64,000 bases of DNA from Minisyncoccota bacterium (lineage in GTDB: Bacteria > Patescibacteriota > Minisyncoccia > Phycocordibacterales > CAJBRS01), in contig JADGRH010000003.1 of assembly GCA_017881075.1 (NCBI GenBank), positions 64,682-128,681 on the forward strand, read 5' to 3'. Shown here one piece after another: positions 37,859-48,693 of this stretch (positions within the stretch are counted from its first letter, which is position 1; every line of letters begins with the position of its first letter). The position numbers were made by a program, and so were the translations under genes. The notes below the pieces were generated by a model. That model ran no database searches. It saw only the letters and a program-made list of their open reading frames with translations, and was not told the origin of the DNA.

Positions 37859-38085
37859 CTATTACTTCTTGTTTTTCTTAGGCTTCTTCTTTTCCTTCTT
37901 TTGTCTATTTGCTCCTTTGGCCATTTTTAGTCAGCTTATAGGTATTTAGCTGATAGCTTATAGTCTTTATTTTTTCTATAAGTTAATTTCCTATAAGCTA
38001 TAAGCTATTTAATAAAGTCGACCTATTTAATTCACATCGAAATTGTCGTCACCCTCATTATACATAAAAAGTATCTGTAATAGGA

Positions 38086-38340
38086 GTGAAATTCAATACG
38101 TCATATACTGTATACAGAAGGTCGCTACTTATTAATCCAATAACTCGTTTCTCTATGAATATAAATTATAAAGGCGGAAATAGCACCGGAATTATCATTG
38201 GCATCGTCGTGATAATTCTTCTGGTCGCTTTCTTTGTCTATGTTCTTCCTGCCATTCGGGGCAATAACAATGGGGGCAGTGCTACTGTCACCCTTCCAAA
38301 CACTACGTCGAATGGCAATAGCGGCGGGCCAGCATACTAA
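38086..38340 (+). CDS. small membrane/secreted protein with Gly/Asn-rich tail
   Basis: 84 aa, one TM; terminator at 38364..38398. Confidence 0.35.
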   Translation: MKFNTSYTVYRRSLLINPITRFSMNINYKGGNSTGIIIGIVVIILLVAFFVYVLPAIRGNNNGGSATVTLPNTTSNGNSGGPAY

Positions 38341-43539: not shown

Positions 43540-44793
43540 TTATTTTAAGGCTAGATTTCCATTAGCTCCGAAATCGGATTTCGGGTTTTTGTCACTTAAA
43601 TAATTGAAATAACCAGCCATGGCGATCATAATGGCGTTGTCGGTGGAGAGGTGGGAGTCGGGAATTAGGAGTTGGGTGTCAGGAGAAGCAGCGATTAAAT
43701 CTTGAAAGGAGCGGCGGAGGTGGGTATTGGCGATTACACCTCCGCCGACTATTAGAGTTTTAATATCAAATTCTTCAATGGCTCGTTTGGTTTTGGTAAT
43801 CAATACTTCAGTGACCGAATCTTCAAATTCTCTGGCCATTTTTGCTTTCCATTCTGGATCTGATTTTTCTTTGTCGGTCATTTTTTTAATTGTGTAAAGG
43901 ACGGCAGTTTTCAATCCGGAAAAAGAGAAATCGTAATCGTTTGATTTGATCATTGGTCTGGGCAAAACAAAGTTGCAGAGGTTTGACCTCTGCAAGTGAT
44001 CTGCAGAGGTCAGACCTCTGCAACGCTCTAAATCGGCCAATTTTGAGATTTCAGGCCCGCCAGGGTAGGGAAGATCCAGCATTCTAGCCACCTTATCAAA
44101 AGCTTCTCCAACCGCGTCATCACGAGTTTGACCAATGATTTTGTATTTTTTCCATGCTTCAATTAAGACTAGCTCAGTATGGCCACCGCTAATGAGAAGT
44201 GCTAAAGCTGGAAAAGAAAAGCTGACAGTTGGTAACTGATAGCTTTCAGCTTTAGATTTTTTTGGTAATAAAGCTGACATAATGTGTCCTTCCATGTGAT
44301 TAGTAGGAATGACAGGCAGATCCCAAACGAATCCCAACGCCTTGGCAAAATTAATACCGACCCAAAGTGCTGGCTCAAGACCGGGGCCGGTGGTGACGGC
44401 AATGGCTTCAATATCCGGCTTAGGAATTGTCGGAATAAATTTAAGAAATTGTTCGAGTAATTCAGGCTCGCGTTCTAGGATCTTTTTCAAACCCCCTCCA
44501 ACTCCCCCTTGTCTAAGGGGGAGAGGAAGCCCCCCCTCCTCAAACGAGGAGGGGGTAGGGGGTGGTGTTGAACCCAATTTATCTAATAACTCTTTTAACA
44601 ACGGAATCAGATTTCTAGAATGCTCTCTCTTCGCCATCATCGGATACACTCCGCCATATTTTTCATGAATTTTAGTCTGGGAATTAAGCGCTTCAGCAAT
44701 CACTTTAAATTGAGGTCGCTCAAAACCGCCATTGGATTCCACGATAGCGAGCGCTGTTTCATCACAGCTAGTTTCAATACCTAGGATTTTCAT
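43540..44793 (-). CDS. tsaD: tRNA N6-adenosine threonylcarbamoyltransferase TsaD with two in-frame repeat-derived insertions
   Basis: MKILGIETSCDETA, HMEGH, GGVAN-type, DFSFSGLKTA motifs; 417 aa vs ~340 typical; see findings for the insertions. Confidence 0.8.
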   Translation of the reverse strand: MKILGIETSCDETALAIVESNGGFERPQFKVIAEALNSQTKIHEKYGGVYPMMAKREHSRNLIPLLKELLDKLGSTPPPTPSSFEEGGLPLPLRQGGVGGGLKKILEREPELLEQFLKFIPTIPKPDIEAIAVTTGPGLEPALWVGINFAKALGFVWDLPVIPTNHMEGHIMSALLPKKSKAESYQLPTVSFSFPALALLISGGHTELVLIEAWKKYKIIGQTRDDAVGEAFDKVARMLDLPYPGGPEISKLADLERCRGLTSADHLQRSNLCNFVLPRPMIKSNDYDFSFSGLKTAVLYTIKKMTDKEKSDPEWKAKMAREFEDSVTEVLITKTKRAIEEFDIKTLIVGGGVIANTHLRRSFQDLIAASPDTQLLIPDSHLSTDNAIMIAMAGYFNYLSDKNPKSDFGANGNLALK

Positions 44794-45046: not shown

Positions 45047-45118
45047 GGCCCTATCGTCTAACGGTTAGGACATCGCCTTTTCAAGGCGGTAATCCGGGTT
45101 CGATTCCCGGTAGGGTCA
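45047..45118 (+). tRNA. tRNA-Glu (anticodon TTC)
   Basis: GGCCCTATCGTCTAACGGTTAGGAC .. loop TTTTCAA .. GGTTCGATTCC .. TAGGGTC-A. Confidence 0.75.
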
Positions 45119-45239
45119 CAGATTTTGTAACTATATTTTGCAACGTATTTTGACTTACCCGATAGGATGTTCAGAACTTTTGTTGTGTTCTATTGATCAT
45201 CCTTTCGTGAGCCGAGTAAAATTTGATATAATTGAAACA

Positions 45240-45515
45240 ATGAATAACATTACCAAAAGTTTTTTACTTTTTATTTTCTCCTATATTCCCATATTAATTC
45301 CTTATTACTTATCTCTGAACATTCAGGGTGATTATTTTTCTTATATAACTTATGGATTATGGCTTTTATTGTCTGGAATATCTGCCTATTTCGCTTATAA
45401 AACATTTAAAAAAGATGAGCATCGTGTTGGAGGAGTTCTTCTTTTTATGGTTGACTTACTCCCTTTTATCTTGACCTTATATCTTTGGTATTTAAACGAA
45501 AATCTTTATGGTTGA
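45240..45515 (+). CDS. small membrane protein
   Basis: start trimmed to MNNITKSF; 3 TM helices. Confidence 0.35.
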   Translation: MNNITKSFLLFIFSYIPILIPYYLSLNIQGDYFSYITYGLWLLLSGISAYFAYKTFKKDEHRVGGVLLFMVDLLPFILTLYLWYLNENLYG

Positions 45516-45524
45516 TAAGTTTTA

Positions 45525-45670
45525 ACATCCTCTACTAGACTGATCAAGCGTGAACTTGTGAACGTCGTGAACCTTATCTAACCACCAACTCCAACTCTTG
45601 AATACTACTTTTTATACAATACTTATAACTCACCAGTTCTGAAAGCCACCCTATAGGGTCATATCATTAA
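45525..45670 (+). repeat. ~150-bp direct repeat, copy A (about 70% identical to 47823..47990)
   Basis: shared blocks CATCCTCTACT, ACTTGTGAAC..CGTGAAC, AGTTC.GAAAGCCACCCTAT.GGGTCAT. Confidence 0.55.
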
Positions 45671-45835
45671 TGAGGAGAGGCGTCTGATACAACGCCAACA
45701 TAGTGTTGACGAGCGTGCGGAGACATTACATTCATTCCATATAAAAAAGCATTGATCAATATTAGTAAAACAATAGTGGTTATAGCCCCTTTTAATGCTT
45801 TAGATGAAAATATGGAATGTGCTTCGGGCATAGAA

Positions 45836-46432
45836 TTATACGTATTGTGGGTTCTTTTTGAGCTTGTTAATTTCTTTCACTAATTCTCCGATATGGATCT
45901 CCAAGTTCTGTGTTCGCTCCGCCAGTTTTATTTCCAGTTGATTTGAATGTTTGGCCATTGTTTCGGCGATCTTCATCATTTCAGTTACATCTTCTATGGC
46001 CAAAAGAATAATTGGTGGAAATATTTTTGAGGCACTTTCTTCTTGAAAATGTATTTGCCGAGCATTTAAGATCATTACCTTACGGCCGATGGAAGGAAAT
46101 TCATGGGCCACTTCAAAACCTTTGAGGAAAGTATTTTTAGGTAGAATGTCTTCCAATAGATCACGCAGTGATGGGATATTCCATTGACCATTACCGAGTT
46201 CATAAACATGCGTATGAGTAGTATCTTTTTCTTCCACTTGAAACATCTTGTAGAAGGACTCGTTGGCCGCCATGACACAGAGATCTTTATTAAGGATTAA
46301 GACTGGTTCCCGTACTACATCCACTACCGTTTTAATGTATGTCCATCCTTCTGCCGATAAGCGCTCGAAAAAACTAGCCCCAAATGGCTTAGAAGACTCG
46401 GCTATCTCATTTTTAGGTGCTTTCATATTCAT
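45836..46432 (-). CDS. PAS-domain protein with C-terminal coiled coil (paralog of 47210..47791)
   Basis: about 70% identity to the other PAS gene over the PAS fold: VREPVLILNKDLCVMAANESFYKMFQVEEKDTTHTHVYELGNGQWNIP. Confidence 0.6.
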   Translation of the reverse strand: MNMKAPKNEIAESSKPFGASFFERLSAEGWTYIKTVVDVVREPVLILNKDLCVMAANESFYKMFQVEEKDTTHTHVYELGNGQWNIPSLRDLLEDILPKNTFLKGFEVAHEFPSIGRKVMILNARQIHFQEESASKIFPPIILLAIEDVTEMMKIAETMAKHSNQLEIKLAERTQNLEIHIGELVKEINKLKKNPQYV

Positions 46433-46570
46433 ATAGCCGAGAGCGTGCCTAAAGCATTACAGCTTGCTATAAGTAGCATAATGTGATAGGCTTAAAGTCT
46501 AGTTACAGTCTCCTTGGTGGCAACACTGAAATACTCTTGTAATAGAAGCTCGCCGCGTGCGGCATATCTT

Positions 46571-47104
46571 ATGATTAGTCCAAAACAACTGACAAAGATG
46601 CAGGGGGTATTAACGAGCGCCCACCTCGACTTTGAAAGGGCGCTTAATAAACATGCCTTTTTCAAGGTAAATGACCATAATATCGGTGAAGATTTGGTAC
46701 AAGACACTTTCCTAAAAACATGGGCCTACCTTGTAAAAGGTGGGGAGATTGTTTTGATGAGAGCTTTTTTATATCACATCCTCAACAATCTCATTATTGA
46801 TCAATATCGAAAACCAAAAACAACCTCTCTTGACGTTTTGCTTGAAAAAAACTTTGAGCCGAGCACCGATATTACCGATAGCCTTTTTAATATCATTGAT
46901 GGCAAAGCAGCCGCTTTACTCATTGAACGTCTGCCTGAAAAATACCAAAAGGTCATGAAGATGCGACACATAGAGCTTCTGTCACTTAAAGAAATATCCG
47001 CCATCACCGGACAATCCCAAAATACCATTGCCGTTCAAACCCATCGCGGATTAATGAAACTGAAGGTGTTGTATGATAATCCTCTACCGGGTGGAGCAGA
47101 TTAG
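46571..47104 (+). CDS. ECF-type sigma-70 family RNA polymerase sigma factor (start uncertain; ORF opens at 46514)
   Basis: region 2 DLVQDTFLKTWAY; region 4 HTH LSLKEISAITGQSQNTIAVQTHRGLMKLK. Confidence 0.65.
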   Translation: MISPKQLTKMQGVLTSAHLDFERALNKHAFFKVNDHNIGEDLVQDTFLKTWAYLVKGGEIVLMRAFLYHILNNLIIDQYRKPKTTSLDVLLEKNFEPSTDITDSLFNIIDGKAAALLIERLPEKYQKVMKMRHIELLSLKEISAITGQSQNTIAVQTHRGLMKLKVLYDNPLPGGAD

Positions 47105-47209
47105 ATTTTATTAATTGGAGGCATGGTAAGATACTGGAACCCCTATTAGAAAACCCTGATACTGAAACTTGTCTTGTAATAGGCTAGCCTATCCAATGGC
47201 TTCATTGTT

Positions 47210-47791
47210 ATGAAAAAATACAAAAAGGACCTTGGCCGAGAATTTAATCAAGCGGAGATAGATTTTATCGAGCGTATAGATAAAGAAAGTAGGTTATATA
47301 TTAAGACCTTGGTGGATATTGTCCGGGAGCCAATTTTAATACTTGATGAAGATCTTCGGGTGAAGATGGCCAACGAGTCCTTCTACAAGATGTTTCAAGT
47401 GGAAGAAAAAGATACTACTCATATGCATGTTTATGAACTCGGTAATGGTCAGTGGAATATTCCTGCTCTCCGAAAACTTCTTGAAGAGATTCTGCCTAAA
47501 AATACCTTCTTCAAAGGTTTTAATGTTACTCATGAGTTTCCTATAATCGGCCAGAAATCAATGGTCTTAAATGCCCGCAAGATTTATTTCGCGGATAACA
47601 CTACTCCACAAATATTTCCGTCTATTATCTTTCTTGCTATAGAAGACAACACCGCAATGATGGCTGTTGCTGAAACTCTGGCTATTCACGTAAAAGAACT
47701 TGCATCTAAAAATGCAGAACGAACCTGGAAACTAGAAATGTATATCTCTAAATTAGAAAAAGAAATTAATGAAATCAAGGAGAATATTTAG
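47210..47791 (+). CDS. PAS-domain protein with C-terminal coiled coil (paralog of 45836..46432)
   Basis: see paralog; opposite orientation. Confidence 0.6.
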   Translation: MKKYKKDLGREFNQAEIDFIERIDKESRLYIKTLVDIVREPILILDEDLRVKMANESFYKMFQVEEKDTTHMHVYELGNGQWNIPALRKLLEEILPKNTFFKGFNVTHEFPIIGQKSMVLNARKIYFADNTTPQIFPSIIFLAIEDNTAMMAVAETLAIHVKELASKNAERTWKLEMYISKLEKEINEIKENI

Positions 47792-47822
47792 ATCCCGACA
47801 CTAGACAAACATTCTGTAGAAA

Positions 47823-47990
47823 TCATTGGATGGTCTGGTTCTAGCATCCTCTACTGGGCGGGGCAAAGGTATACTTGTGAACACCGTGAACGTTATTTCA
47901 TTACTAAACTCAATTCTTGTATGCTAGATTTGATATAATCACTCTGACCTTCAAGTTCGGAAAGCCACCCTATGGGGGTCATGCCATATG
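47823..47990 (+). repeat. ~150-bp direct repeat, copy B; also the promoter/5' region of the HAD gene
   Basis: contains GATATAAT -10-like box; ends at the ATG of 47988. Confidence 0.55.
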
Positions 47991-48608
47991 AACGCTCACA
48001 TGCAGTCCAAATCAGTTATAGCAATTGATGTCGATGATGTTATTGCTGCAAACGCAAAGGCTTTTATAGAATATAGCAATCAGAAATTTGACACTAATTT
48101 AACGATTGATGATTACCAAGAACATTGGGGTGAAGTTTGGAAGGTAGAGTATAACGAGGGAGAAGAGCGTGCGGTTGAATATATTGATTCTGGTCACATA
48201 GCAACATATGGGATGATTGAAGGTGCTAGAGAGGCTCTTCTGCAACTAAAAAAACATTTTGAACTCATAGTATTAACTACAAGGCGAAATTCTGTAAAAC
48301 AGCTGACGAAAGACTGGCTTGAAAAATATTATCCCGACGTTTTTGACGACTTCATTTTTACCGGATTTTTCGATTCTCCAACTAAAGATAGTATTAATAT
48401 GACTAAAGCAGAATTGGCCAAAAGTATTAGGGCGGATTATCTTATCGATGATCAACTAAAACACATTATGGCTGCATCAGAGATCGGCATAAAAGGTCTT
48501 CTCTTTGGTAATTATTCATGGAATAAGACTGATAATCTTCCGAAAAATGTTACTCGAGTTACGGATTGGCAACAGATACTTATTTATTTTGAGAATCATA
48601 TAAGCTGA
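47988..48608 (+). CDS. HAD-superfamily 5'(3')-deoxyribonucleotidase-like hydrolase
   Basis: IAIDVDDVIA (DxDx[TV] nucleophile motif); NT5C-like spacing of later motifs. Confidence 0.5.
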   Translation: MNAHMQSKSVIAIDVDDVIAANAKAFIEYSNQKFDTNLTIDDYQEHWGEVWKVEYNEGEERAVEYIDSGHIATYGMIEGAREALLQLKKHFELIVLTTRRNSVKQLTKDWLEKYYPDVFDDFIFTGFFDSPTKDSINMTKAELAKSIRADYLIDDQLKHIMAASEIGIKGLLFGNYSWNKTDNLPKNVTRVTDWQQILIYFENHIS

Positions 48609-48693
48609 TTCCAATTCTCTCCCACTCGGGTCACGTCATTCGTTACTTTTTGTCTATTCACGAAGCGGTTGTTCCCTGTTAAAATAGGAGATT

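Follow-up and report, generated by a model that had tools for sequence, protein, structure and literature searches.

Two PAS-domain genes on opposite strands around the gene for an ECF sigma factor, with a direct repeat on either side, raise the question of how such a module was assembled and whether its three genes work together. The stretch of DNA analyzed here (the window, 64,000 nucleotides) comes from a genome (G000) of 716 kb in 6 contigs with a completeness of 97%, and protein look-alikes as well as site-bearing records indicate that it belongs to the Patescibacteria. The gene order in the window is tRNA-Val, tRNA-Ser, tRNA-Glu, PASa, sigma, PASb, and a HAD-like 5′-nucleotidase gene. 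The arrangement reported in the first-pass annotation holds, i.e., PASa (45836..46432) is on the minus strand, while sigma (46571..47104) and PASb (47210..47791) are on the plus strand. Compared with the window, the tRNA-Ser/Glu genes are inverted relative to tRNA-Val and tsaD in G001 and G002 (L115 and L116). Two in-frame stretches within tsaD (43972-44024 and 44500-44566) are palindromic. Among the genomes compared, G249 is counted in tallies and supports no conclusion by itself.

The direct repeats are present on recomputed alignment (45519-45662 versus 47838-47982, 71.7% identity over 145 nt, E of 1e-14 against the genome; 71% over 140 nt in a second alignment), in agreement with the earlier figure of about 70%. 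They do flank the module; however, each repeat is a composite rather than one unit, and its parts are not private to the module. In order, each contains a 29-bp tRNA-Asn-type site on the plus strand (A, 45518..45546, somewhat degenerate, PWM score 31.9; B, 47837..47865, PWM score 38.9), a plus-strand GTGAAC motif (copy A, a triple motif, 45550..45572; copy B, 47869..47891), the detached tail of a large serine recombinase (LSR) gene on the minus strand (A, 45574..45657, the last 27 codons and stop, PIGWLSEL...IKSSIQEL; B, 47893..47976), and a tRNA-Glu-type attachment site on the plus strand (A, 45635..45661, PWM score 46.2 against a shuffled maximum of 8.5; B, 47954..47981). The first 29 bp alone have 17 copies in the genome with PWM scores >20 (shuffled maximum, 15). 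In both window repeats, the Asn-type site abuts the GTGAAC motif and the Glu-type tail. Because this adjacency is absent from 44 Glu-type sites elsewhere, copies A and B could have one ancestor. The GTGAAC motif lies behind 4 of these 44 sites and ahead of 3, and it was found beside none of the 62 Asn-type sites of other genomes. At L078 (oriented 1365-1473), tRNA-Glu is followed directly by a GTGAAC motif, a tail, and a Glu-type site, as in an empty cassette, and a sigma homologue lies across the tRNA cluster from it. At G000 C1:2380-2585 (minus strand), an Asn-type site, a GTGAAC motif, a tail of another sequence (LAWRDTLRT...), and a final site follow one another, an arrangement that matches the window repeats but uses a third family of sites; the right flank of this last site copies the DNA after tRNA-Asn. 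An Rfam search of the repeats gave no match, and a structured RNA or riboswitch at the hairpin-like repeat end was rejected when this end was mapped to the LSR coding end.

Several lines of evidence connect the Glu-type site to an LSR. First, on its opposite strand the site reads PIGWLSEL...I..SI.EL, with a stop after 27 to 34 codons in 19 of 22 cases; of the other three, one stops at 12 codons and two pass 36. Matches to the Glu-site pattern were found in 15 metagenome stretches on 14 contigs, where up to 4 sites form an array. Searched over 400 genomes of the class, the exact pattern matched only 1 other genome, and a protein profile was therefore needed. This profile, built from 18 tails, matches 47 of 400 other genomes of the order, and the 53 tail matches listed are all in frames of 26 to 298 aa, none of LSR length. 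Second, at L111 a tRNA-Glu is followed by an LSR ORF (PF07508), which ends in CDPTGNRPPV inside the tRNA, and then by two site-closed cassettes; the tail profile also finds proteins with an upstream part homologous to this ORF. Third, among 77 LSR homologues, 20 have tRNA-Glu-derived ends, with CDPTGNRT, the minus-strand translation of the tRNA-Glu end, as C-terminus, 19 end in the PIGWLSEL tail, and 38 have other or cut ends; both end forms have full-length examples (P0093 with the tail and P0097 with the tRNA end). The comparison thus shows an LSR with two alternative C-termini, tRNA-derived where the gene abuts the tRNA and PIGWLSEL-tailed where the site is intact, and a detached tail with its site closing each cassette. 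Because homologues end in one way or the other, the element-side site lies within the LSR gene, and integration would then leave the tail at the far end.

Asn-type sites also recur. In this genome they are co-oriented around small accessory ORFs, and the longest run, on C1, begins behind tRNA-Asn. Fifteen further sites lie at C1:1146-3208, C6:164285-168889, C4:9041-16374, and C5:73453 and 80876, co-oriented within each cluster, and the C1 run may cross a contig gap into C6. A degenerate Asn pattern matched 22 of 400 other genomes of the order and its reverse none, and 29 GTDB records carry the pattern, mostly with Patescibacteria or unnamed labels and some with other labels. These 29 loci have at least two sites in 16 cases and a single orientation in 28. 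An LSR is found at the site in only one of them, L044, where the C-terminal half of the LSR reads through the site as LRMLNDVRT. Four loci (L045, L043, L054, and L031) carry the labels Desulfosporosinus, Ignavibacteriaceae, and Emticicia, which could reflect binning error or wider spread. In G001, of the same genus, an Asn-type site lies two ORFs downstream of tRNA-Glu(CTC) on C1 (L112); G002 has a Glu-type site at the corresponding position (L113).

In 15/15 loci that hold both, the Glu-type site follows tRNA-Glu on its strand, 81 to 3085 nt away, and the window has the same order, with co-oriented repeats behind tRNA-Glu(TTC) (45047..45119, plus strand; ARAGORN). This order together with the LSR ends supports a model, which we hold with good confidence, whereby the region consists of cassettes stacked at the 3′ end of tRNA-Glu by LSRs that carry the element-side site in their own gene. 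As in composite islands, the sites belong to an LSR, for the Glu type generally and for the Asn type at one locus. Each insertion would leave one tail and site at its far end, giving rise to two direct repeats. Cassette 1 would then carry a hydrophobic ORF of 91 aa without family assignment (45240..45515, plus strand; GC content 0.32 compared with 0.44 for tsaD), and recombination between sites A and B would excise a circle of ∼2.3 kb with PASa, sigma, and PASb. A second LSR system, using the tRNA-Asn-type sites, would have acted inside the cassettes. Downstream, the low-GC HAD/NT5C gene (PF06941; 47988..48608) and a gene for a PP2C-like phosphatase (PF13672; 48694..49476), both on the plus strand, are probably older cargo. 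A GGGTCAC past the HAD gene (48600-48634) resembles the tRNA-Glu end; as an eroded Glu-type site it was rejected because its PWM score is under the threshold.

Sites A and B are the only good Glu-type sites in this genome, and site B may be dead, having a core one base longer than those of 18/18 measurable profile-found sites. No LSR with Glu- or Asn-type ends is encoded in this 97%-complete genome, i.e., neither the element nor the genome provides a cognate recombinase. The two LSRs of the genome end differently, and any site activity would therefore need an outside enzyme, with excision depending on supply in trans. Both LSR genes are intact and of other specificity (C1:65129-66700 and C2:16136-17602); the latter ends inside tRNA-Ser(GCT). 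Viral contigs searched with the Glu- and Asn-site patterns gave 0 matches. The opposite strand of tail B contains TG-n-TATAAT at 47931-47939, and 19 of 44 related sites have a −10-like hexamer at the same offset, while a sigma-70 scan did not call this element; that repeat copy B serves as promoter of the HAD gene is plausible.

The suggested cargo is an ECF sigma factor that promotes its own expression, together with a stand-alone PAS sensor, a pair that would normally be resident in the chromosome. The sigma factor has regions 2 and 4 only, as expected for ECF (group IV) proteins, and scores 58.4 bits against TIGR02937 (cut-off, 42.9), in line with its Pfam matches. Its likeliest start is ATG 46571 (177 aa), 7 nt after a promoter motif, rather than TTG 46514. 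Relatives of the PAS proteins were found in 40 of 301 genomes, this one included. We compared the neighborhoods of the 30 best PAS loci; in the 29 besides the window, a full sigma gene lies head-to-head with PAS in 24, a sigma fragment in 1, and none in 4, arguing that PASa and sigma represent a standard pair. PAS and sigma are absent, by these queries, from two genomes of the same genus. In 20 other PAS-sigma loci, ∼6 kb on each side were without Glu-type tail, Asn-type site, or LSR.

An ECF-type motif, TGTAAT-N15-17-CG(G/T)C, precedes 17 of the 24 sigma genes and 12 of the 24 PAS genes, and TGTAAT alone is upstream of sigma in 22/24 loci compared with a background of 12%. In the window, TGTAAT-N16-CGGC is found before both PASa (46436..46461, minus strand) and sigma (46538..46563, plus strand), and a copy with one mismatch, TGTAAT-N16-TGGC, before PASb (47175..47200, plus strand). 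An own promoter motif upstream, the sequence signature of sigma autoregulation, is thus shared by 17 of 24 orthologues and the window. In 16 of these 24 loci, the full motif also occurs immediately past the PAS gene. At the orphan TGTAAT downstream of PASa (45725..45730, minus strand), relatives have the promoter of the next gene, which is missing here; the usual peptidoglycan-binding neighbor has no close orthologue in G000, G001, or G002. Genome-wide, the promoter motif is only about twofold enriched (10 occurrences versus 2 to 8 in shuffles), and the regulon scan was weak. We infer that sigma transcribes itself, the PAS gene, and genes for surface proteins. At 38076-38340 of the window, TGTAAT-N17-CGTC precedes an ORF for a 61-aa membrane protein that resembles small ORFs beside PAS in L003 and L023, a possible target of this sigma factor.

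Both PAS proteins had been proposed as partners of sigma. PASa is a good candidate based on the 24/29 head-to-head loci and the common promoter motif, while PASb has the promoter with one mismatch. From linkage, we suggest, at slightly under an even chance, that PAS feeds back on sigma as a soluble, signal-gated inhibitor. The predicted structure of PASa has a PAS fold between an N-terminal helix and a C-terminal helix of 44 residues (pLDDT 83), a sequence search of the PDB gave one weak kinase PAS match, and a predicted complex of sigma and PASa scored 0.00, which speaks neither for nor against binding. Alternatively, and still a serious contender at clearly less than an even chance, PAS could be a sensor under sigma control that passes its signal to other proteins, e.g., a histidine kinase or a phosphatase, without binding sigma. 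Consistent with this alternative, PAS has a sigma-type promoter of its own and is divergent from sigma in 24/24 paired loci rather than co-transcribed as an anti-sigma gene would be; PASb is downstream of sigma, but also with its own promoter motif. Moreover, PASa is closest in fold to short LOV proteins and to the PAS domains of kinases (8 to 19% identity), and two of the four PAS loci without a nearby sigma adjoin larger signaling-type ORFs. By contrast, the tight head-to-head linkage across many families while the neighbors change, and the lack of a membrane anti-sigma gene beside sigma here, speak against this alternative.

The repeats and the second PAS gene had been attributed to segmental duplication and inversion, and we consider it improbable that such a local event made both. 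In its favor, the two repeats share a four-part layout not seen at 44 other Glu-type sites, and the PAS genes are 72% identical in DNA. However, the parts of the repeats are found in many genomes with unrelated cargo, in the manner of attachment-site scars. Over 28 codons, the two tails show 10 synonymous and 9 replacement differences, a mostly synonymous divergence that fits the ends of two different coding elements. In addition, the repeats are direct while the PAS copies are inverted, and thus no single event gives both. The repeats therefore look like LSR attachment-site scars, for which duplication/inversion is not the best reading.

The PAS sequences point in the same direction with less force. 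PASa and PASb, described as about 70% identical proteins, are 61% identical (118/192) and 75% similar, and 72-73% is the DNA figure. The median for orthologue pairs is 65% identity, so the value for PASa and PASb gives no sign of recent duplication. Outside a tract of 93 nt, PASa is 58% identical to PASb and 77% identical to a PAS protein from another family, and 21 of the 27 sequences compared resemble PASa more closely than PASb does. Duplication in place is disfavored, with PASa and PASb joined in 0/200 bootstrap trees, yet AU tests of their sisterhood gave p = 0.285 for whole genes and, with the tract removed, p = 0.11 or, with a fast search, p = 0.04, and the first two values do not reject it. 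A separate origin of the two genes is favored, not proved, and PASb, which has a long branch, is probably an extra, separately acquired copy. The 93-nt tract (46176..46268 in PASa, minus strand; 47368-47460 in PASb) has 91/93 nt in common with 56 nt exact, and a 154-nt interval including it is 89% identical between PASa and PASb compared with 65 to 78% at other loci. The tract is best read as recent gene conversion. PASb would, in the cassette-stack model, probably have arrived as its own Asn-type cassette and exchanged these 93 nt with PASa later.

Could the same tract, inverted between the two PAS genes, flip the sigma segment and swap the N-terminal thirds of the sensors? Such a switch seems very unlikely, even though the 56-nt exact inverted repeat is real by depth, being covered ∼2x as deeply as its flanks in X1, a run from which this DNA possibly derives, and even though a 31-mer contig graph leaves the orientation of 46239-47397 unfixed. 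The two halves of PASa show the same nearest foreign orthologue pattern, PASb is divergent over both of its halves, no invertase is nearby, the tract is short for RecA, and sigma is flanked by two PAS genes of this family in 0/20 other loci. Contigs of three runs from one sample, which drop rare forms, contained no excision or inversion joints. A dif-module reading, with the 28- to 29-bp sites serving as dif-like Xer sites, is hardly credible despite the 28-bp length, the single tyrosine recombinase in the genome, and what we take to be a partial resemblance of one site class to dif, given that the best canonical dif match has at least 9 mismatches, that the sites do not have the 11-6-11 layout of Xer sites, and that they are co-oriented with both types inside LSR coding ends.

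Within the cassette-stack model, the end of the sigma gene is relevant to how the cassette was made: fused to its final codons is the right half of an Asn-type site (47070..47098, plus strand; PWM score 15.0). Against three sites, this half-site matches 17/20 positions of the right part and 3/9 of the left part. A score of 15 is expected 0.55 times per shuffled genome and ∼0.001 times in the interval, which was chosen after the fact. Extended to 65 nt, the likeness is no better than that of several unrelated genome tiles, and only the 20-nt right part was therefore counted. Homologous sigma factors have short variable ends where the half-site overlaps the last codons. The half-site may record a capture; if it is real, PASb would be its own cassette of 767 bp and the sigma end a capture junction. 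More tentatively, and on balance doubtful, the locus could be a snapshot of cassette birth in which an Asn-type LSR used the look-alike at the sigma end and captured the switch, and a Glu-type LSR then moved the unit to tRNA-Glu. Two cooperating LSR families would here form an integron-like platform, with the detached tail as outward promoter and the second PAS as a second input to sigma.

Patescibacteria have tiny genomes and few known routes of gene gain. Stacks of tRNA-anchored LSR cassettes would be one such route, and with a transcription switch as cargo in place of one enzyme, the cassette could rewire a regulon. The two alternative LSR C-termini suggest a built-in switch for directionality or stability, of interest for genome-engineering enzymes, and the PAS-ECF pair may be a new form of ECF regulation whose defined promoter lends itself to assay. 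For integrons, how new cassettes originate is an open question, and the half-site at the sigma end offers a concrete, testable route. Altogether, the sequence comparisons support a view of this locus as serine-recombinase cassettes stacked behind tRNA-Glu, with a conserved sigma-PAS switch and an extra PAS as cargo.

In integrons and integrase-less arrays, co-oriented sites lie between accessory cassettes of one to three genes. The region is similar in its co-oriented sites separating cassettes and in a possible outward promoter at the junction. It differs in that no IntI is linked to the array, the only tyrosine recombinase being on C5 among core genes, in that the sites are LSR coding ends where integrons have attC palindromes, and in that the cargo has both orientations. 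In BPs-type phages, attP likewise lies inside a gene, and integration at a tRNA changes a protein C-terminus; there, the repressor is cut and the integrase is a tyrosine recombinase, while here the serine recombinase itself would change its end (PMC9262239). The sigma-PAS pair resembles autoregulated ECF/soluble anti-sigma pairs in having regions 2 and 4 only, a CG(G/T)C −10 box, and an adjacent small soluble partner; it differs in that the candidate partner is a stand-alone, divergently transcribed PAS-coiled-coil gene and in that the −35 element is TGTAAT instead of AAC (PMC8103513). A literature search of mostly open-access papers found neither LSR cassette arrays nor a PAS-ECF pair in Patescibacteria; the published ECF classification may already include this sigma group with its PAS neighbor.

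Among the close parallels are SCC/SCCmec and enterococcal ECC islands, which are mobilized by Ccr large serine recombinases (PMC6222049). Common to both would be insertion by an LSR at the 3′ end of a conserved target, att sites in direct repeat, composites with several distal att sites, and recombinase-less remnants. By contrast, the target here is tRNA-Glu (and tRNA-Asn) and theirs rlmH, and the units here are 0.1 to 2.3 kb and theirs tens of kb (PMC6222049). The rlmH 3′ end, ccr genes, and TATCATAA core that define those islands are not found here, where the anchor is tRNA-Glu and the consensus core differs; moreover, the att site inside the recombinase gene here would swap its C-terminus, and two site families interlock. 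Tycheposons of Prochlorococcus are also tRNA-anchored islands, assembled by integrative elements that leave behind partial-tRNA att repeats, and have adaptive cargo; however, 910 of the 937 rely on tyrosine integrases and many have replication genes, whereas here the scars are of LSR type and the cassettes are without a replication gene (10.1101/2020.12.28.424599). By analogy, the region would work like SCC/ECC islands and tycheposons while departing from their defining target or enzyme. Particular to this locus are the interlocking of two site types and the half-site at the 3′ end of sigma.
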